Shown: positions 4,007 to 35,860, numbered from the stretch's first letter. The stretch is DNA of 36,351 nt from Escherichia coli (GCF_017348835.2 NZ_CP072313.1), one strand, 5' to 3'. Notes: a model not told the origin generated them from the sequence alone. Translations and numbers: made by a program.

Positions 4007-4522
4007 TTACGCTCTGTTTTCCACGCGTTGCCACCCTGTCGCCCTGCGCTGTCCAGTCGTACCGTATTTTGCGCGGATTTCTTCTATCGTGTGTTCTTCA
4101 CGATTCCAGTAACGTTTATGTTCTTCTGGACGATAAAACCATTGTTTTTTCTTTGCCGCCCATTTACACCCGATTTCTTTTAAAGTTTCTTTATGTGTAA
4201 TGGTATCTCCACTAATCCAGACCCAGTTACCTATAACTTCAAATACCAGACCTGATAAACCAGAAAGAACGTTTAATACTTTTTCCAGGTCGTCACCGTA
4301 ATTATATCGAGAATGTTCATCAGTGCTCTGAAACTGATTAATTTTATCGATGTTAGCCATGAGAAAATCAAAAGCTGCATTTACCGCTTTCATCAGTTCA
4401 GCCCCTAAAGGATTACGATCTGGATGATATTTTAACGCAGCTTTTCTGTATGCTGCTTTGATATCTTTTTCGGTTAATTCACCGGATAACCCAAAAACAT
4501 TTAACGCTTCCTGGATATTCAT
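4007..4522 (-). CDS. J-domain (DnaJ-like) protein, 171 aa, first gene downstream of module A3 promoter
   Basis: N-terminal J-domain with the invariant HPD motif (AAYRKAALKYHPDRNP); C-terminal part unrecognised. Confidence 0.7.
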   Translation of the reverse strand: MNIQEALNVFGLSGELTEKDIKAAYRKAALKYHPDRNPLGAELMKAVNAAFDFLMANIDKINQFQSTDEHSRYNYGDDLEKVLNVLSGLSGLVFEVIGNWVWISGDTITHKETLKEIGCKWAAKKKQWFYRPEEHKRYWNREEHTIEEIRAKYGTTGQRRATGWQRVENRA

Positions 4523-4950
4523 TTCAAATCTCCTGTCCGTTTGGACTTAAGAAGGAAAGGAGCCAATCTCCTTTCGATGAAACAATAATACATCTATTTG
4601 GATGTATTATCAAGGTTTCTGATCTGAAAAACGGTAAATTATTTGATGATTGTCACGCTGTTATCCGCGCCAGCGGATGTAAGGGGCGAACGAAAGTTCC
4701 AGGGTAGCACAGGAGCCACATCGCCCCGAAGCGCGGCAACGCCGCTACTGTTATCAACCGGAACCAGGGAACACCCTCCCGCCCTGCTAAGCCCGACTGA
4801 CTCACAGACAACGATGACGCTGATTTGCGCCGCAGAATGCCGCAGTTAGCGCTCGCGCCAGCGAGTTTACGCCGTCCAGGGTTTCCCTGGACGGGGCGCT
4901 GTACTGCGCGTGTGAGCGTCAGCGAGCTACGGGCGCAACACGCCAGAAGT
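4523..4950 (+). repeat. type-A module copy 3
   Basis: near-identical to 693-1123 and 2453-2866. Confidence 0.8.
4585..4613 (-). promoter_or_regulatory. sigma70-type promoter of module A3 (-35 TTGATA, 17-bp spacer, -10 TATTAT)
   Basis: same as the promoters at 755-783 and 2515-2543. Confidence 0.55.
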
Positions 4951-5104
4951 TAAGCAGCCCTCATTGGCATCCCCACGACCTGAAGGACGTGGGGTTACGT
5001 CGCATTTGACAGGGATTCCCCATGTAAATCTTAAAGATTCCTGTTGAACATCTTAAATACTTCTGTAGTATACCTATAGTAATTACCTAACAGGGGAGAC
5101 AGTA

Positions 5105-5770
5105 ATGGCTATTTATGCAATATCAATATCAAAAGGTGGGGTGGGAAAAACCACATCTGCTGTACATATAATCGATGAAATAAAGCCTGACGTTGTTTTC
5201 GATCTGGATTTACACCACAGCCTGAGCATAATTAACAGACTGCGACCAGCTGAAAAAAAATGGTCAATAGTGACAGTTTCAGACAAAGCAGAATTGCTCA
5301 CATATCTGAAAAAAATAAATGACGAAGGAAAAACGGCAGTTATCGACTGCGGGGGGTTTGATGCTGATATTAACCGCATCGCTATAGCTGTTGCTGATGT
5401 GATCATCGTTCCGGCAAATGACGATGTTACTGAGCAGATCGGACTTGCCACCTTCGATGCCGTCCTCGCCGAAATATCCAGACAAACAGGCAGAAATATA
5501 CAGGCCCATGTTCTGATGTGTAAAACACAACCTAATCAGAAAAACTTCCCTGATATGGACGATACAATGAAAAAGGTTAAACATATGGCGCTACTGAACG
5601 CTCGCTTATCATATCGTAAAGGACGCTATGGTTTTACCGATTCTTTGCGTAAAGGAATGGGGATAACCCAAATTAAGCATGGTCGTAGTTCACAGGCAGG
5701 ACGAGAAGTTATAGAGCTTGTAAAAGAATTACGCGCTTTATCTTCAGATAACACAGGTTTTCCTGCATAA
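5105..5770 (+). CDS. parA: ParA-family partition ATPase (small ParF-like)
   Basis: deviant Walker A box KGGVGKTT near the N-terminus; followed by a small RHH-like gene; GGAG Shine-Dalgarno. Confidence 0.8.
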   Translation: MAIYAISISKGGVGKTTSAVHIIDEIKPDVVFDLDLHHSLSIINRLRPAEKKWSIVTVSDKAELLTYLKKINDEGKTAVIDCGGFDADINRIAIAVADVIIVPANDDVTEQIGLATFDAVLAEISRQTGRNIQAHVLMCKTQPNQKNFPDMDDTMKKVKHMALLNARLSYRKGRYGFTDSLRKGMGITQIKHGRSSQAGREVIELVKELRALSSDNTGFPA

Positions 5771-7300: not shown

Positions 7301-7554
7301 GATGTCGCGCCAGCGACATGTAAGGCGGTACGCTGTGGTTACATGTGGAACTGGAGTAAAACCGCCGAAGCCCGGCGTAAGCCGGTACTGATTGATAGAT
7401 TTCACCTTACCTATCCCCATCCTGCTAAGCCATACCCGCTTTCAGCCATGACGGAGTTTCTGTGCGCGGTCGGAGTGGTCCCGACAAGGGTTTACCCGAA
7501 GTCGGGGCGTATCTCCGCGTTAGCGGGCCGTTAGGGCCGCTTACGAGCGTGTAT
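7301..7554 (+). repeat. type-C structured element copy 1; inverted partner at 35981-36235
   Basis: about 95% identical to the reverse complement of 35981-36235; shares the 5' hairpin and CTGCTAAGCC core with types A and B. Confidence 0.8.
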
Positions 7555-7599
7555 TCGATACTTCCAGCCAGAGGACTGACAGCGACGATGACGCTTAGT

Positions 7600-8148
7600 T
7601 ACAACATCCATTATTAAAAGCGATGTTGTTCCCGCCCTTTGGGCGGGGGCGGCGGCGCTTTTCAGTGATGGGTTGGGCGCTGTGGCTGAGTATTTGCAGC
7701 GTTTTTTGTAGGAGGGTTGGAGGGGCTTTGTTTTTCATCGGGCAGAAGTTCATATGCCCGCCGCGAAGCGGTGGGAGGTACTTTTATATTCTGAGCGGCG
7801 CGGCTTTAGCCGCTGCAAGCGAAGGCATTTTTGTGATTATCCACAGTTGTTTCAAAGATAAATATTTTCCCTGCGGCGAAGCAACGCTGGGGATTAAAGA
7901 ACAGGGGTTAAGAATATATTGCAGGTTTGATCTTCTATGTTTGCTGCTTTCTGAAGTTATTCGTTTGCGGTTTTTTGTGAATAACCGAAGGCGGTTTAGC
8001 TCCGATACCCGATTGTGGCCATCAAAAAACTGTCAGAGCGGGACAAAATGAAAAACGGTCGTCAAAAATGAGGAATTTCATGAAATGCAGGCAACACGAA
8101 AAGCCCCGAAGGGGCTGAAGAGAGTGCCGATTGTATCAGGCAGCTAAA
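7600..8148. other. candidate replication origin region downstream of repA
   Basis: consensus DnaA box TTATCCACA at 7837-7845; GC-rich then A/T-rich blocks; position matches IncFII-type plasmids where the origin lies 3' of repA. Confidence 0.4.
8097..8118 (-). terminator. rho-independent terminator after repA
   Basis: minus-strand RNA forms GCCCC-UUC-GGGGC followed by UUUU, about 30 nt after the repA stop. Confidence 0.5.
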
Positions 8149-9204
8149 CTAGTGGGGTGGAGAAGCTGTCAGGGCCAGTTCAAGCTGACGTAGATCCCTG
8201 GCTACCAGTTGCTCTAATCTTTCTTTAGTGCACCAGTACGCTTCGTCCGGCGACATACGCTTCAGAATAAACCGTGCAATTTCGTTTCGCTGTTCATCAT
8301 ACGGCAGTTTTGCAAGGCGATTGGCACGTTTGCGCTTTGCTGCTTTCTCTCGTCGGAACTTGATGGCATCGAGAGAACGCTGCGCATACCAGCGTTTACG
8401 AGCCGAGTGAACAGAGATTTCCTCGCCCTCGCGGATAACGCCTTCTTTAATCAGTTGCAGACGGATTTCACTTTCTGCAAGGCGCTTACGTTGCTGTTCC
8501 TGAAGTTTCACCAGATCAACTCCCAGCATTTTCCAGCCAGTTTCGGTGATCCAGACGTATTTCGGCAGTCGCTGGCGGGATTCACGGTCCCATATCGTCT
8601 TTTCTGACGTTCCCAACGTGCCAAAGGAAACCTGCTCTGCCAGCAGACGGGAAAGGCGCGATACTGTGACTGCGGTTTCAGGAATAACGTTTCCCTTACT
8701 GTCTTTTGGGCTTATTTCTTCTGCCAGGCGGGAGACAGACATGCCGACAGTGTGCAATCCACGATCACAAAAACTCACAAGTACAACCCATATTGCGTCA
8801 AGCAGCCGCTGTTTCTCCGGTCGGAATTTATATTTGCGACCGACACTCTGACGTTTCAGTACATAAAATGGATGCAACGACATATGCATTCTGAGTGTGT
8901 ACTGACCAGTGACCGGGTCTTTTTTAACGAGACGATTGTAAGCGTGGCCCAACTGTCCGCCCAGCGCCTTATAGCTGTCGGGACGGAACCAGGCTGGATT
9001 CTCACACTTTGGCTTAGTGGAATGTTCACCACGGCGGCGCTTCGTGCTCCGTTTTTCCGGTTCAACCAGAAATGACGTGGCCCTGCCCGATTCGTAATCC
9101 TCCCAGAAAAGGATTTGCTCTTCGGGAGACAGTTCACTCCAGTGTAATGAAGGCCTGTTCAGGGAAGCCATAAGCAATCGCTTATGGCAGAGCTTGATTC
9201 GCAC
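8149..9204 (-). CDS. repA: plasmid replication initiator RepA (IncFII/IncI-complex RepA family)
   Basis: overall resemblance to RepA1/RepZ-type initiators; GTG start at 9204, alternative ATG at 9171; terminator and DnaA box downstream, antisense-RNA-like hairpin upstream. Confidence 0.7.
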   Translation of the reverse strand: MRIKLCHKRLLMASLNRPSLHWSELSPEEQILFWEDYESGRATSFLVEPEKRSTKRRRGEHSTKPKCENPAWFRPDSYKALGGQLGHAYNRLVKKDPVTGQYTLRMHMSLHPFYVLKRQSVGRKYKFRPEKQRLLDAIWVVLVSFCDRGLHTVGMSVSRLAEEISPKDSKGNVIPETAVTVSRLSRLLAEQVSFGTLGTSEKTIWDRESRQRLPKYVWITETGWKMLGVDLVKLQEQQRKRLAESEIRLQLIKEGVIREGEEISVHSARKRWYAQRSLDAIKFRREKAAKRKRANRLAKLPYDEQRNEIARFILKRMSPDEAYWCTKERLEQLVARDLRQLELALTASPPH

Positions 9205-9264
9205 AGTGCATTTTTACACCGGACGATATTGAATAATGAGGAAAGCATCATGTATACTGTCTTC

Positions 9265-9346
9265 CAAGGGATTTCCCCTGCCCCCATTAAACTTTGATCG
9301 GCCTCTGCCAAGAAACGGATGCAAAGTTAATGGGGGTTTGTTTTTT
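9265..9346 (+). ncRNA. candidate antisense copy-control RNA (CopA/Inc-RNA-like) in the repA leader
   Basis: plus-strand promoter -35 TTGAAT (9229-9234), 18-bp spacer, -10 TATACT (9253-9258); 15-bp stem (9281-9296 with 9322-9336) followed by T-run 9337-9346. Confidence 0.45.
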
Positions 9347-10061
9347 ATGGCTTCATGGAATCTTTCAACTCCTGCCATACACCTGAATGCCTTATGGCGC
9401 ATCCTACCTTTATCCCCTATGACGGGGACCAAATTTCTCAAATTTAAGCGAAGATCAAAAAGGATCAACACCGAATGCCGCTTAATATACCTGTAGCCCT
9501 CCGATTTGAAAAGTGTTTGTCGTGACGCTCATTCCACCAATCTCGCCAAATCAGCACATCCGGCACTGCCGATGAAACAATCAAAAAGTATTTTTTTTCG
9601 CCACTTCTTTAATTTTTAGAATATTAGATCGTGAATGATCTATTCAACGATCTATCATACCAATATAAAAGCTGATTTTAGAATTTTATACTTTTTATTT
9701 TGATTTATGCGGGATAATAGATCGCCTAAACCACCTTGAACGATCTATTGTACTGGTTTAAAGTCTCCATGTTGAAGTTTTCCGCTATCAGCAGAACGCC
9801 CGAACAAGGCGTTATTCGTACGCTCTTTAACACCCCTGGACAGCGGTAATTGCCTGAAGCCCTGGCATGAGGAGGATTAATTGTGTGCAAAAAACAGCAC
9901 TTGCTGACAATGTTCAGTGTGGGCTACGTATAGAGTGACGTGCCGCGCCATCTGACAGGTAACGACTCATTTTTACAATTTTCAACATAGTTAATTCCCT
10001 TTATCAAACTCGATTCCCTGAAAGGGGGATTAACTGTGTACGAAAAGTACAGGAGATAATA

Positions 10062-10244
10062 ATGAGAGATGATAATTATCTTGATGGATTAATTGCCGGA
10101 GGTACTGTTGCAATTTCTTTTGCGGGACTGATTCTGTTAATCGTGAGTAATTTGAAAAACGAAGCTGAGACAGAAAAAACTGCATTTTATGAATGGGCCG
10201 ATTCACACTGTGAAAAAATTGAAAAACATTTTAAATGTTACTGA
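10062..10244 (+). CDS. small membrane protein (60 aa)
   Basis: AGGAGA Shine-Dalgarno 6 nt upstream; one hydrophobic helix (GLIAGGTVAISFAGLILLIV). Confidence 0.45.
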   Translation: MRDDNYLDGLIAGGTVAISFAGLILLIVSNLKNEAETEKTAFYEWADSHCEKIEKHFKCY

Positions 10245-10315
10245 AAATTCGAAAACATTTAAGTGTGATGACGGAAAAATTTACACAATAAAATGGTGAA
10301 ATAGATTAACATGTT

Positions 10316-10600
10316 ATGTCACAAGCAAAAGCAAACCTGAAGAAATTACGTCATCACTGTTATATTCCACCAAAACAAAAAATATCCAGACTGTATTATG
10401 TTGAAAAAGCCTTAAGTTCTCCCTGGATATATCGTGAACGGCCTGCATACAGAGCAGAGTTGCTACTTACACATGACACACTGCTTGTTATTTATGGCCT
10501 GGCAAAATCCGGCCTGATTGACCGTTCTGAGGAATCACTCAACAGAGAAATCAAAGGGGTCCGAAAAGCGCTCGCAGCCGGACGTTTCCGTTGGTCGTGA
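10316..10600 (+). CDS. hypothetical protein (94 aa) upstream of the T4SS
   Basis: ORF in the track; stop codon immediately followed by element B1. Confidence 0.45.
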   Translation: MSQAKANLKKLRHHCYIPPKQKISRLYYVEKALSSPWIYRERPAYRAELLLTHDTLLVIYGLAKSGLIDRSEESLNREIKGVRKALAAGRFRWS

Positions 10601-10799
10601 GATGCCGCGCCAGCGGCATGTAAGGCGGCACTCTGTACTTAAATATGGCTTTGCGGGTTATCCGCCGAAGCCCCGCGCCAGCGGGTACTGTCTTCTATAT
10701 TCTCTGGAACTGCGCTCGCGCCCCCTGCTAAGCCCAAAACGCACGGAACCAACAGCTACACGGTTGTTTCTGGTCGAAGACCGACACTGCTGAAGCGAT
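10601..10799 (+). repeat. type-B structured element copy 1
   Basis: hairpin ATGCCGC-GCCA-GCGGCAT, then TAAGGCGG, CCGCCGAAGCC, CTGCTAAGCC, TTGTTTCTGGTCGAAGA; starts at the stop codon of the upstream gene. Confidence 0.8.
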
Positions 10800-11163
10800 A
10801 TTATTCGAAAGTTATCCTACTGCGCAATGCCCCTGTTTTATTTGAGGAAAATGGCATGAAGCATAAAAATTTTATTCCGAAATGGTATGATTCAACTCTT
10901 GAGTCAATTTCCCATCAAGATGTTAACACGATTCACAGTATCATTGATGAACACCACAAATTATGGAATATCCAGATGTGCAACAGGAACTATTTAACAG
11001 ACTGTTATCCGGTAAAAAACTGACGATTCATGATGAGCGAGAAATAATTGATATCTGCTCACGAAGGAGCGCAACATATCATTTAACCAGAAGTAATATC
11101 CCTAAGTAATCTGACGCTGCCAATAATCCGTTAAATTAAACTTTCATCGTTACCTGTCAAAAA

Positions 11164-11769
11164 ATGTCTATATCCGCAACTGTGCTTATGACACTGATCA
11201 GTCAGTGCGCACCTGGTGTTTCTCCTGAAACCATGCGTGCCATTATTATGACTGAATCCGGTGGGAATCCCTACGCTATAGCAAATGTCACCGACGGTGG
11301 CAGTAAATATTTTACCACTGAAGAGGAGGCTGTTAATCACGCAAAAAAACTGACTACAGATAAAAAAAATTTCAGTGCTGGCCTAGGGCAGATAAACAGC
11401 CGTAACTTCCAGACTTTAAATTTAACTCATGAATCCGTTTTTTCTCCCTGTGCGAATATTCGCGCTGCTGCGGCAGTGCTGAAAACGTGCTGGGATAAAT
11501 ACGAAACAAAAGGGGGGGACCAACAAAAGATACTACGTGACGCTATGAGTTGTTATTACTCCGGTAATAACAAACGGGGTTATGTGAAGGAAAGCAATGG
11601 CAAAAGTTATATCGATATAATTGAGGAAAAAGCCGGAATACATACTCATTATGATATTCCGGCAATAAAGTCATATTCAGAAACATCCAGCCATTTAATG
11701 GTATCCAGTGATAACCATGATAAATGGGATGTTTTTGGTGATTTCGGAATACAGGATTTTAAGGAGTAA
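11164..11769 (+). CDS. virB1: VirB1-like lytic transglycosylase
   Basis: lysozyme-like catalytic motif region (IMTESGGNPYA); first gene of the virB-type cluster. Confidence 0.85.
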   Translation: MSISATVLMTLISQCAPGVSPETMRAIIMTESGGNPYAIANVTDGGSKYFTTEEEAVNHAKKLTTDKKNFSAGLGQINSRNFQTLNLTHESVFSPCANIRAAAAVLKTCWDKYETKGGDQQKILRDAMSCYYSGNNKRGYVKESNGKSYIDIIEEKAGIHTHYDIPAIKSYSETSSHLMVSSDNHDKWDVFGDFGIQDFKE

Positions 11770-14974: not shown

Positions 14975-15175
14975 TAGCATGCCGCACAAGCGGCATGTAA
15001 GGCGGCACTCTGTACTTTAATATGGCTTTGCGGGTTATCCGCCGAAGCCCCGCGCCAGCGGGTACTGTCTTCTATATTCTCTGGAACTGCGCTCGCGCCC
15101 CCTGCTAAGCCAAAACCGCACGAAACCAACAGCCACGCGGCTGTTTCTGGTCGAAGACTGACAATCTTAAAGCGA
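14975..15175 (+). repeat. type-B structured element copy 2
   Basis: hairpin ATGCCGC-ACAA-GCGGCAT and downstream conserved blocks; sits between virB4 and virB5. Confidence 0.8.
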
Positions 15176-27390: not shown

Positions 27391-29553
27391 ATGAAACTTT
27401 TTATTGCAGAAAAACCCGCAGTAGCAAATGATATTGTTAAGGCTCTTGGGGGCAATTTCACCCGTCATGATGGCTGGTTTGAAAGTGATAATGCCATTGT
27501 GACTAACTGCTTTGGTCATATTATCGAATCACAGCCACCGGAAAACTATAATCCTGATTACAAAGCCTGGAAAGTTGAAACACTCCCTTTACGTCTTTAC
27601 CCCGTCAAATATCAGCCAGTAGAAAGTGCCGCAAAGCAGGTTAACACAATTCTTGAGCTTATCAGACGTGGAGACGTGACTGAAATTGTTCATGCTGGCG
27701 ACCCTGATGAAGAAGGTCAGCTACTTGTTGATGAAGTTCTGGAATATGCGGGGAACACAAAACCCGTTAAGCGCGTTCTGATTAACGACAACACGCTTCC
27801 GGCAGTGAAAAAGGCACTGGCAAATCTTAAAGATAATCGTGATTTCAAAGGGCTTTACCTTAAGGCGCTGGCGCGTTCAGTTGCTGATGCCGTCTATGGC
27901 TTCTCTATGACGCGTGCTTACACAATCCCGGCAAAAACTAAAGGCTATAAAGGTGTTTTGTCTGTCGGACGGGTCCAGACACCCGTGCTTGGCCTGATTG
28001 TGAATCGTACCCGCGCTAACCAGAACCATAAATCCAGTTTTTACTACACCATGACCGGAGTCTTTCAGCGTGGTGCTGATGTTATCAGGGCGAACTGGAA
28101 GCCAGGGGAATTTGCTCCGCTGACAGACCGTAAATTACTTGATAAAGCGTGGGCAGACGGAACGGCAGCATCCCTTGCAGGAAAACCGGCTACAGTTGAA
28201 GCGGCAGCAACTGATGATAAAAAAACGGCTGCGCCGTTGCCGTTTAACCTGGTCAGACTCCAGCAATACATGAACAAGAAGTTCAAAATGACGGCACAAA
28301 AAACGCTGGATATTACGCAACAACTACGCGAAAAATATAAAGCAATTACTTATAACCGCTCTGATTGCTCATATCTTTCTGATGAACAATTCAGCGAAGC
28401 GCCGCAGGTTATCGATGCCCTGAAATCAGTCTTTCCTCAGTCGCTGGATATTGATTCTGCACGTAAAAGCAAAGCGTTTAACAGTGCAAAGGTGACTGCG
28501 CATACTGCGATAATCCCGACCGCCAGTGTGCCTGATGTTAACGCACTCAGCACCGACGAGCGCAATGTTTACCTGGCGATCGCACAACACTATCTTGTTC
28601 AGTTCATGCCTGAAAAAGCATACCAGGAAGTATCGGTTGCCATTCAGTGTGGTGATGAGTCGTTCTATGCCCGTGCCAGAAAAACAACTGACAGCGGATT
28701 TGAGGCGTTTCTTGGCGCGGAAACCACAGACGAAGGTGAATCAGAAGATAATGATGATTCCGCTTTTGAACAGCTTTGCAAAATTCGCACTGGTGAAACA
28801 CTGACAACAAAAGAAGTTGTTGTTAATGAGAAGAAAACAACACCGCCGCCGTTATTCACCGAAGCCTCCTTGCTTGCTGCGCTTGTTCGTGTCGCGGATT
28901 TTGTCACTGATCCAGTGATTAAAAAATTACTGAAGGATAAGGATAAAGACAAAAAAGATGAACATGGCGGTATTGGTACGCCAGCTACACGCGCTGCCAT
29001 TCTGGAAGCGCTGAAGAAGAGAAATTATATCACGCTGGAAAAAGGGAAACTTATTCCGACGGATACCGGATGTGCGCTTATTGATGCCCTACCAGGTATA
29101 GCGGTTAATCCTGATATGACAGCATTATGGTCTGAAAAACAGTCTGCCATTGAAAATGGCGACCTGACGGTTGAACAGTTTATTAATGATCTGTACGGTG
29201 AACTGACAGGCATGATTTCTGATGTTGACCTGGGCGAAATGAAAATTGAACCCGCAGCGCCAGCCGGACAATCTCCACGCCTGAGTTCTCCCTGCCCTTC
29301 CTGTGGTAAAGCGATTATTATCAGACCAAAAGGTTATTTCTGTACAGGATGTGAATTTAAAATCTGGAAAAATTTTTCTGGTAAAGCATTATCCGATAAG
29401 CAAGTGGAAACACTTGTTACAAAAGGTATTACCGGAGAATTAAAAGGATTTGTTAGTTCAAAAACGAATAAGAATTTCTCGGCTAAGGTTAAACTTGTTG
29501 ATAAAACGGCCGGAAAGCTGGGATTTGAATTTACCCACAAAAAATCAATATAG
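27391..29553 (+). CDS. topB: DNA topoisomerase III (TopB)
   Basis: 720 aa; Toprim-type N-terminus MKLFIAEKP; C-terminal zinc-ribbon Cys pairs (CPSCGK...CTGCEFK). Confidence 0.9.
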   Translation: MKLFIAEKPAVANDIVKALGGNFTRHDGWFESDNAIVTNCFGHIIESQPPENYNPDYKAWKVETLPLRLYPVKYQPVESAAKQVNTILELIRRGDVTEIVHAGDPDEEGQLLVDEVLEYAGNTKPVKRVLINDNTLPAVKKALANLKDNRDFKGLYLKALARSVADAVYGFSMTRAYTIPAKTKGYKGVLSVGRVQTPVLGLIVNRTRANQNHKSSFYYTMTGVFQRGADVIRANWKPGEFAPLTDRKLLDKAWADGTAASLAGKPATVEAAATDDKKTAAPLPFNLVRLQQYMNKKFKMTAQKTLDITQQLREKYKAITYNRSDCSYLSDEQFSEAPQVIDALKSVFPQSLDIDSARKSKAFNSAKVTAHTAIIPTASVPDVNALSTDERNVYLAIAQHYLVQFMPEKAYQEVSVAIQCGDESFYARARKTTDSGFEAFLGAETTDEGESEDNDDSAFEQLCKIRTGETLTTKEVVVNEKKTTPPPLFTEASLLAALVRVADFVTDPVIKKLLKDKDKDKKDEHGGIGTPATRAAILEALKKRNYITLEKGKLIPTDTGCALIDALPGIAVNPDMTALWSEKQSAIENGDLTVEQFINDLYGELTGMISDVDLGEMKIEPAAPAGQSPRLSSPCPSCGKAIIIRPKGYFCTGCEFKIWKNFSGKALSDKQVETLVTKGITGELKGFVSSKTNKNFSAKVKLVDKTAGKLGFEFTHKKSI

Positions 29554-29684
29554 TATCTAATGACACGTCTGAAGTATCCGATTAACCAGGGGTGGTTTGT
29601 CGACTTTAGATTGTGCCATATATGGAGTTGTTAGAAGAAAAGGGACTTCCTCCGGTCGGAGCCACCAACTCAAGGCCGGAAAAC

Positions 29685-34976: not shown

Positions 34977-35654
34977 ATGATTAATGATAAATCCTTTAAC
35001 ATTGAAAACATTATTTCTGATATTTTTAAAGAAACCAGATTAAAAATAAGTAAGGACGATCCTGTTTTAAGCATAGTACTAATGCATGAAAAAATACTCG
35101 AACATGCACTAACACAACTTAAAAACAGTAATCAAATAGCTACTGAAAGATTATCTCATGACATATCTTCAATAAGAGATGCAATCAACGCATTACCTGA
35201 AGCTATTGATGAAAAAACGTCAGAACTACAACATGCAGCAGTAGCACTTCATGACGAATTCCAGGAAAGCAAAGGAGAAATTAAAGGTTCTCTGGAAGAA
35301 GCACGAATTAATGCAACAGAGAAATTAGCAGAAAGTGCAAAAGAACTTCAATTAAACATTACAAAAGTTGCCGAAAAAACAACAGAAACAATAGACACAG
35401 TAAATAAAATAATAAGCAATATAGAAACCGAACTATATGACATAAATAAAAAAGCTCTACATGATTATGTAAAAGAGATTAAGTTAGTGGATGAAAAAAG
35501 AAAAAGTATAACAACTAACCTGGAAAGTGCAATTAATGACGCTTTCAAAAAAAGCGTAAAATCGTTTAAGTTTTATTGTAGCGCGGCATTAATTATTAGC
35601 ACTCTACTACAATTCACAATGTGGGGGTTCTTTCTATATAAGCTTCTGACCTGA
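34977..35654 (+). CDS. coiled-coil protein with C-terminal transmembrane anchor (225 aa)
   Basis: GAGGA Shine-Dalgarno; C-terminal hydrophobic segment AALIISTLLQFTMWGFFLY. Confidence 0.5.
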   Translation: MINDKSFNIENIISDIFKETRLKISKDDPVLSIVLMHEKILEHALTQLKNSNQIATERLSHDISSIRDAINALPEAIDEKTSELQHAAVALHDEFQESKGEIKGSLEEARINATEKLAESAKELQLNITKVAEKTTETIDTVNKIISNIETELYDINKKALHDYVKEIKLVDEKRKSITTNLESAINDAFKKSVKSFKFYCSAALIISTLLQFTMWGFFLYKLLT

Positions 35655-35860
35655 TGTTTTAAATGCCGCTTTAGCGGCATGGAAGGCGGCACTCTGTAGC
35701 TAAATGTGGTTTCGCTGGTTATCCGCCGAAGCCCCGCGCTAGCGGGTGCTGAATTCTATATTCTGAGGAACAGCGCTCGCGCCCCCTGCTAAGCCAAAAA
35801 CGCACGAAACCAACAGCCACTCGATTGTTTCTGGTCGAAGACTGACAATGTTAAAGCGAC
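35655..35860 (+). repeat. type-B structured element copy 4
   Basis: hairpin ATGCCGC-TTTA-GCGGCAT; starts at the stop of the upstream gene. Confidence 0.8.

Follow-up and report, generated by a model that had tools for sequence, protein, structure and literature searches.

A conserved, dyad-symmetric GATC array upstream of repA in I-complex plasmids as a candidate Lrp-bound, Dam-methylation-sensitive regulatory element

Lrp, Dam methylation and SeqA act at several well-described regulatory regions. SeqA imposes a refractory period at oriC, at the dnaA promoter and at P1 oriR, and the Lrp upstream activating region of ilvIH carries multiple phased Lrp sites at roughly -260 to -40. In the pap operon the Lrp sites are about three helical turns apart and have GATCs inside them. 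For the Salmonella virulence plasmid pSLT, Camacho and Casadesus reportedly found in 2005 that Lrp and strand-specific Dam hemimethylation in the region upstream of traJ couple expression to replication. The pap operon is a Lrp/Dam-controlled switch that operates by competition between Lrp and Dam, and SeqA binds pairs of hemimethylated GATCs (PMC13076061). For E. coli Lrp, the SELEX consensus yAGhAwATTwTdCTr and a second published consensus, AGAATwwwATTCT, are available (quoted in PMC5554404).

Plasmids of the I-complex (IncI1, IncI-gamma, IncB/O, IncK, IncZ and IncI2) are major carriers of ESBL, AmpC and mcr-1 genes, and rank with the principal vehicles of resistance to cephalosporins and colistin in Enterobacteriaceae. 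Control of their replication is taught as purely post-transcriptional, exerted through an antisense RNA, a leader peptide and a pseudoknot. Here we describe an array of GATC-bearing sites upstream of the replication initiator gene repA in a 36,351-nucleotide stretch of Escherichia coli DNA (NZ_CP072313.1), the whole of which is referred to below as the window. In the open-access literature we found no paper that ties I-complex repA to Dam, SeqA or Lrp, although an earlier description is possible.

The window is a circularly permuted 36-38 kb E. coli plasmid with an identity of 99.7-100% to pDETEC35 (NZ_CP116127) across the shared parts. The plasmid carries a VirB-type T4SS and a MOBP relaxase, and its replicon type is IncI2. 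Its replication module (Table 1) has the components of an I-complex (IncI/B/K/Z) replicon: an IncFII-family RepA, a translationally coupled leader peptide whose stop codon overlaps the repA ATG, a stem-loop/pseudoknot target, and a downstream origin. The Rfam PK-repZ match in the repA leader has a score of 30.6 bits (E = 6e-4), which is under the gathering score. The origin region contains three copies of AANCNGCAA at 7919, 7941 and 7965, spaced 22-24 bp, which we take from the IncB literature to be RepA-type repeats, together with a DnaA box TTATCCACA at 7837-7845 and a Ter-like (Tus-type) sequence GGATGTTGTAACTAAG with its core GTTGTAAC at 7597-7604. Since these features are all downstream of repA, the origin is placed on that side. 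The published I-complex layout has the same leader/antisense control arrangement and an origin downstream of repA (PMC10286972). The origin region of the window holds one GATC (7929).

The replicon is a mosaic. Over the body of repA (8100-9144), identity to canonical IncI2 plasmids of 58-61 kb is 96.5%, and BLAST similarity to these plasmids ends upstream of approximately 9145. From that point upstream, the first repA codons, the leader and the antisense target are I-complex pseudoknot-type sequence. The plasmid is typed as IncI2, yet its antisense (incompatibility) specificity is probably different.

The original prediction placed a cluster of five GATCs within GATCTAT-type repeats upstream of repA. 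All five start positions are exact (Table 1), and the repeat copies are borne out, with GATCTAT at 9637, 9649 and 9742, ATAGATC at 9717, and TAGATC at 9625. The cluster does lie upstream of repA, 456-575 bp 5' of the ATG of this minus-strand gene. It is the densest GATC grouping in the window (P ~0.036 window-wide for five GATCs within 120 bp under uniform placement) and occupies the locally most A/T-rich stretch (24-28% GC). Local composition (29% GC) predicts 0.47 GATCs where five are observed, an excess of about tenfold (P = 1.3e-4); in the window as a whole, GATC is slightly rarer than predicted (106 observed versus 129 expected).

Only twelve PLSDB plasmids carry the window's own version of this stretch, two of which are diverged (80% and 73% identity). 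In a four-way alignment of positions 9600-9765, comprising the window and three diverged relatives, 18 of the 20 GATC columns are invariant compared with 70 of the 146 other columns (Fisher P = 2.5e-4). In the relative CP146509, GATC 4 is not lost: it has moved by 9 bp and occupies the other edge of the 15-bp site in which it lies. A Dam-methylation- or SeqA-sensitive promoter had been proposed for this region. The retention of the GATCs while their flanks diverge, and the recurrence of the cluster at the same distance from repA in every I-complex lineage sampled, lend indirect support to a sensitive element. The cluster is not the repA promoter (see below).

Table 1. Features of the array and of the repA control region, in window coordinates
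Feature	Position	Strand	Description
Site F	9586-9600	plus	AAGTATTTTTTTTCG; Lrp-like 15-mer without GATC; 11/15 to YAGHAWATTWTDCTR; 93 bp from axis, on the repA side
Site A	9617-9631	plus	TAGAATATTAGATCG; 12/15 to Lrp consensus; GATC at positions 11-14; 62 bp from axis
Site B	9648-9662	minus	plus-strand CGATCTATCATACCA; GATC at positions 2-5; 31 bp from axis; mirrors site D
Site C, central palindrome	9679-9693		TAGAATTTTATACTT; 13/15 to YAGHAWATTWTDCTR; without GATC
Site D	9710-9724	plus	CGGGATAATAGATCG; centre 31 bp from axis
Site E	9741-9755	minus	plus-strand CGATCTATTGTACTG; centre 62 bp from axis; mirrors site A
GATC 1	9627-9630		in site A; invariant in four-way family alignment
GATC 2	9637-9640		extra, between sites A and B; 47.5 bp from dyad axis, on the repA side
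GATC 3	9649-9652		in site B; four-way alignment
GATC 4	9720-9723		in site D; four-way alignment
GATC 5	9742-9745		in site E; best-conserved box across lineages, AATAGATCGTT in repA sense
Two further conserved GATCs	9453, 9463 (to 9466)		about +11 and +21 from predicted repA start; GATCAAAAAGGATC; 10 bp apart
Predicted repA mRNA promoter	9484-9512	minus	-35 TTTTCA 9512-9507; 17-bp spacer; -10 TATATT 9489-9484
Second promoter-like element toward repA	9747-9775	minus	-35 TCAACA 9775-9770; -10 TACAAT 9752-9747
repA, replication initiator, 340 aa	8149-9171	minus	Pfam IncFII_repA; RefSeq annotation of 100% identical pDETEC35 stretch
repA leader with pseudoknot-type control region, antisense RNA target	9184-9341	minus	Rfam PK-repZ
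Stem-loop I in repA leader	9281-9336	minus	inverted repeat I1
Leader peptide ORF, 30 aa (MMLSSLFNIV...)	9159-9251	minus	read directly from sequence
Origin region, downstream of repA	7597-7973	minus	repeats, DnaA box, Ter-like core

The structure of the array consists of five 15-bp sites (A to E) that are spaced at exactly 31 bp, or three helical turns, and are mirror-symmetric about a single dyad axis at 9686. The central site lacks a GATC, and each of the flanking sites A, B, D and E has one at its edge, at positions 2-5 or 11-14. Two GATC pairs are exactly symmetric about 9686, with GATCs 1 and 5 lying 57.5 bp, and GATCs 3 and 4 lying 35.5 bp, to either side; the probability that two of five random sites pair about a given centre is 4.8e-4. 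The core of the central site, AGAATTTTATACT (9680-9692), agrees with AGAATWWWATTCT, a published Lrp consensus of E. coli, at 12 of 13 positions. At one mismatch or fewer, AGAATWWWATTCT has only three matches in the window, 9680-9692 among them, versus 0.47 expected. The window's own central site is imperfect against both consensus forms (13/15 and 12/13). Sites A to E score 10-13/15 against the Lrp consensus, the centre 13/15 and the flanking sites 9-12/15, each flanking score being the best of several registers; the background mean is 6.0 and 3% of 15-mers reach 10 or more, figures to be read with the degeneracy and A/T-richness of this consensus and the 24-29% GC of the array region itself in mind. 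The earlier suggestion of a protein-binding array is supported by this arrangement and can be sharpened to one of dyad-symmetric, 31-bp-spaced sites around a palindrome that resembles the Lrp consensus. No known RNA family was found in the array in an Rfam scan of 7500-11200.

We oriented eighteen loci on repA for GATC mapping, aligned nine lineages and fetched 20 loci for the consensus search. In every I-complex replicon sampled, four to seven GATCs fall between about -440 and -610 relative to the repA start codon, or between -595 and -729 in the case of one Salmonella plasmid. Cluster-bearing loci come from the window's own family, canonical IncI2, IncK2/Z, IncI-gamma/K1 and IncI1-like plasmids, and in each lineage GATC is 8-15 times more frequent than composition predicts. 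At the equivalent position, the cluster is absent from the IncL/M (repC) and IncFII-type (copB) relatives. At least 1,319 plasmids in PLSDB have 80% or more of the IncI1-type version of the array, and no annotated feature coincides with it in any of the 30 PLSDB matches listed.

The central palindrome is an exact Lrp consensus in relatives of the window: IncK2/Z and IncI1-like loci read CAGAATATTATTCTG, and IncI2 reads CAGAATAATATTCTG. In all, the homologous centre is an exact consensus in seven loci (IncI2, IncK2/Z, IncI1-like and family), both forms being exact in L002, L006, L008 and L010, AGAATWWWATTCT alone in L003 and L004, and YAGHAWATTWTDCTR alone in L009. Outside the homologous position, no exact Lrp consensus occurs in the 20 loci fetched. 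Variants of the palindrome alter degenerate consensus positions only, and do so symmetrically, as where AGAAT/ATTCT becomes AGCAT/ATGCT in L009 and L012.

Sites were scored relative to the axis in eight lineages (the window, L003, L004, L006, L008, L010, L012 and L002), with the cluster-bearing locus L011 left out. In each of the eight, a GATC-bearing 15-mer is present 31 bp from the axis in both directions and 62 bp from it toward repA. At 62 bp in the other direction, such a 15-mer is present in every lineage except L006 and L002. The position of site F matches the Lrp consensus at 12-13 of 15 bases in L008 and L010 (IncI1-like) and in L012. The 52 GATC offsets across lineages have a peak period of 10.5 bp (Rayleigh R = 0.74); because the lineages share ancestry, neither these counts nor the periodicity test represent independent samples. 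The extended motif TAGATCGT is exact in 14 of the 52 GATC sites. The anatomy, the conservation and the consensus matches of the array are direct results of computation.

On the far side of the cluster the genes vary by lineage, with a P-type T4SS in the window and traA or a NusG-like gene elsewhere, which indicates that the cluster travels with repA. We considered a partition (centromere) site for the ParA system (5105-5770) and rejected it, as the array follows repA in plasmids with unrelated partition systems.

We tentatively propose, at a little under an even chance, that the cluster is a conserved, Lrp-bound, Dam-methylation-sensitive cis-regulatory array upstream of repA in I-complex replication modules. 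From the sequence we infer Lrp as the probable binder, an effect of methylation, repA as the presumed target, and the direction of the effect. A Lrp multimer would bind the phased sites cooperatively, and the nucleoprotein complex so formed upstream would modulate transcription of repA. In a pap-like manner, Lrp occupancy would change when the edge GATCs are methylated, and Dam may conversely be blocked where Lrp is bound. Passage of the replication fork would leave the sites hemimethylated, at which point Lrp occupancy could change. SeqA may act on the same GATCs after replication, since the in-phase pairs (10, 12 and 22 bp apart) could also bind it when hemimethylated. The net effect would be that expression of the initiator follows both the nutritional state of the host, through Lrp, and recent replication of the plasmid, through Dam state. 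A bolder form of this proposal is that all I-complex plasmids carry a host-operated epigenetic switch, in which a Lrp complex set by the Dam pattern of four to seven phased GATCs makes repA transcription replication-coupled or even bistable, with heritable high and low states; we regard it as doubtful.

The in-phase GATCs also fit a reading in which only SeqA acts. SeqA bound to the GATCs while they are hemimethylated after fork passage would then transiently silence or sequester the repA promoter region and impose a refractory period, and the palindrome would be incidental or belong to another factor. GATC itself is the most conserved feature of the array, its density (five in 119 bp) is comparable to that of oriC, and the predicted repA start is closely followed by two more conserved GATCs. 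Selection on in-phase GATCs could be explained by SeqA alone, and the spacings of 10, 12 and 22 bp with 10.5-bp phasing fit binding to hemimethylated GATC pairs (PMC13076061). However, SeqA needs just GATC, and its action leaves the TAGATCGT motif, the 31-bp spacing, the dyad symmetry and the conserved, symmetrically varying palindrome unexplained, so that we consider SeqA as the sole factor unlikely.

The palindrome and the symmetric half-sites indicate that a dimeric or multimeric protein binds, but do not identify it. The array might bind a dimeric protein of another kind, be it a different host factor or a plasmid product so far unrecognised, or might mainly control transcription directed away from repA, into transfer genes, with GATC being no more than a part of the recognition sequence of that protein. 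In favour of another target, some plasmids of the IncK2/Z and related types have a divergent NusG-like gene that starts only 140-220 bp away from the array, and in IncI1 pESBL a nearby yet distinct upstream region, Hft, controls both transfer and copy number (PMC4288162). Hft is not the same element: it is located at 35394-35663 in pESBL, where repZ starts at 36525, and thus extends from -1131 to -862, whereas the IncI1-type array is at approximately -454 to -612. The distance between the array and repA is fixed, whereas that to the divergent genes ranges from 140 to more than 900 bp. Furthermore, repA is the sole protein-coding gene common to the array-bearing plasmids, which points to a host factor. 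Lrp is favoured over other proteins by the exact matches to both published consensus forms in the relatives; by-eye comparison with OxyR (ATAG-N7-CTAT), ArgR (5+4+5 palindrome) and XerCD/cer-like sites gave spacings that do not fit, and these candidates were rejected. Another protein or another target is, in our judgement, rather improbable.

The conserved block of the predicted repA promoter, cTTTTCAAA...gGTATATT, is kept in all non-IncI2 I-complex lineages aligned, and the predicted start is near 9477. The array is about 110-270 bp upstream of this promoter and start and does not overlap them; the cluster as the repA promoter itself was rejected, as the conserved promoter is about 110 bp nearer repA. 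The repA -10 element is 196 bp away from the axis in the window family and 218-219 bp away in IncK/Z and IncI1-like plasmids, a difference of 22 bp or about two helical turns. At a place similar to that of the two GATCs downstream of the predicted start, IncK2/Z plasmids have two to three GATCs (-276 to -308), and IncI1-like plasmids have one slightly further upstream (-349, -361). In the IncI2 plasmid pHNSHP45, a repA-lacZ fusion that starts at -497 and is without the central palindrome is still active (PMC8053102), and the array is thus at most modulatory. The published IncI2 transcription start is -253 (PMC8053102). No obvious promoter fitting this start was found in the alignment row of the IncI2 locus L002, and the start in the window was placed independently.

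The second promoter-like element (Table 1) overlaps site E and GATC 5. The distal boxes could be part of a second, methylation-sensitive repA promoter with GATC 5 at its start site (near 9740), by analogy with the IS10 transposase promoter, which is Dam-sensitive, or with the upstream copB promoter of IncFII. A promoter scan gives a 9/12 match, and the -35 and a TAnAAT-like -10 are retained in three family relatives despite local divergence. However, the element is conserved only in the window's own plasmid family and is unrecognisable in the array-bearing IncK/Z, IncI1-like and IncI2 lineages, and it would explain only one of the five GATCs. We hold such a promoter to be quite unlikely as an account of the array.

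The original prediction also saw a resemblance to the 13-mers of oriC and raised the possibility of a DNA-unwinding element. Such an element, or another origin component, would fit the locally most A/T-rich stretch and the two boxes that begin with GATCTAT. However, the likeness is weak and at background level: only two of the five sites match GATCTNTTNTTTT at two or fewer mismatches, and the window has 43 such matches versus 28 expected. Tandem GATCTnTTnTTTT 13-mers beside initiator boxes are lacking, and the array itself contains neither a DnaA box nor a RepA-type repeat. Because the 13-mers are at background and the origin features lie beyond repA, in agreement with the published I-complex layout (PMC10286972), this reading fails, and we give it hardly any credence. 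An array of RepA binding sites was likewise rejected, with AANCNGCAA occurring three times in the origin and being absent from the array.

Further features of the window are described here as observations in their own right. Just past the array is a 150-bp non-coding block (9822-9971) that is nearly invariant in the plasmid family, shares about 80% identity with over 500 IncI2 plasmids, and can be folded into one long hairpin. It contains a promoter-like CTGACA-16-TACAAT at 9952-9979 that is aimed at the T4SS genes. The block might serve as a 5' leader or as a hairpin of the single-strand promoter or priming type, and covariation analysis of it was uninformative. A 24-nucleotide direct repeat (AGGAGGATTAATTGTGTGCAAAAA / AGGGGGATTAACTGTGTACGAAAA; 9870-9893 and 10023-10046) and a hairpin with 18-bp arms (9985-10039) are directly upstream of a small ORF at 10062. 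Rfam gives a weak Mu-gpT-DE match (E = 0.13) at 10016-10064.

Elsewhere, a non-coding direct repeat of about 420 bp is present in three copies that are 88-100% identical (689-1130, 2449-2867 and 4519-4961) and sit between small maintenance/accessory genes, with a partial fourth copy at approximately 21378-21658 close to where the T4SS cluster ends. From multiple BLAST placements on pDETEC35 we inferred an intergenic repeat family of about 185 bp (10602-10786, 14979-15163, 23722-23907 and 35663-35848) and a 252-bp inverted repeat pair (7302-7553 versus 35981-36232), one arm of which is just past the Ter-like site. Between its topoisomerase and relaxase genes pDETEC35 (25098-25756) has hha and an H-NS-family gene. 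Around 29384-29648 of the window there is an unmatched gap in both sequences, and the window appears to be without these genes, an absence that may be relevant to an A/T-rich regulatory region such as the array.

If the proposed control by Lrp and Dam is correct, it would constitute a third, hitherto unrecognised layer of copy-number control over the antisense RNA and leader-peptide coupling, and one that is transcriptional and epigenetic. Nutrient state (feast/famine) and the replication cycle could then set copy number, the dosage of resistance genes and fitness cost.

Among the systems with which the array can be compared, IncFII CopB/PrepA and IncL/M RepC have auxiliary control at the same position in the replicon, just upstream of the repA leader. 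However, copB and repC are genes for plasmid-encoded repressors, whereas the array is non-coding and presumably based on a host protein. The SeqA-sequestered clusters of oriC, the dnaA promoter and P1 oriR are similar to the array in GATC density (here five in 119 bp), in close, in-phase pairs (spacings of 10, 12 and 22 bp, under a limit of about 31 bp, with 10.5-bp phasing), and in their association with initiation control. The array is outside the origin and appears to be off the initiator promoter, being 110-270 bp upstream of the predicted start with only the separate GATCs at 9453 and 9463 near it, and its extended motifs and symmetry go beyond what SeqA requires. The ilvIH-type region shares multiple phased sites with the array, but its sites have no GATC component; the ilvIH-derived consensus AGAATTTTATTCT is one base off the central site of the window. 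Like the predicted sites of the array, the Lrp sites of the pSLT traJ region are borne on a plasmid, precede a promoter and enclose a GATC; there, however, one GATC accompanies two Lrp sites, and the process under control is transfer, not replication.

The closest parallel is pap. The papI-papB region that we fetched contains the boxes AAACGATCTTTTAA and GCATAAAAGATCGTCTAAAT, and an IncK2/Z box, GCATAAAAGATCGTTTGTGA, is similar. The I-complex box consensus TAGATCGTT / AACGATCTA resembles the pap boxes; in extended form, AAAAGATCGT and ACGATCTTTT of pap are like TAGATCGTT and ACGATCTAT of the I-complex, and one IncK2/Z box has 14 consecutive bases in common with the distal box of pap. At the sequence level the array has 31-bp-phased Lrp-like sites with GATCs inside them, and ACGATC, the pap-type box, is present in three of the five boxes of the window. 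In both systems inverted boxes are about 100 bp apart. However, pap has two GATC boxes at a distance of 102 bp, whereas the window has five GATCs, with inverted pairs that are 22, 71, 93, 105 and 115 bp apart. Across lineages the array has four to seven GATCs and a strong, GATC-free central consensus palindrome, compared with two GATCs in pap. The array also differs from pap in lying upstream of the promoter without overlapping it, and in being next to a replication-initiator gene rather than a pilus operon. A tblastn search of the window with the co-regulator PapI gave nothing better than E = 1.8, and no PapI/FaeA-family gene is annotated on the near-identical pDETEC35. The 102-bp spacing and the PapI gene thus set the array apart from the pap class, and what it shares with pap, as read from sequence, is its logic and its box sequence. 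If the proposal is correct, this pap-type Lrp/Dam logic would reach from the phase variation of surface structures to the replication of plasmids.
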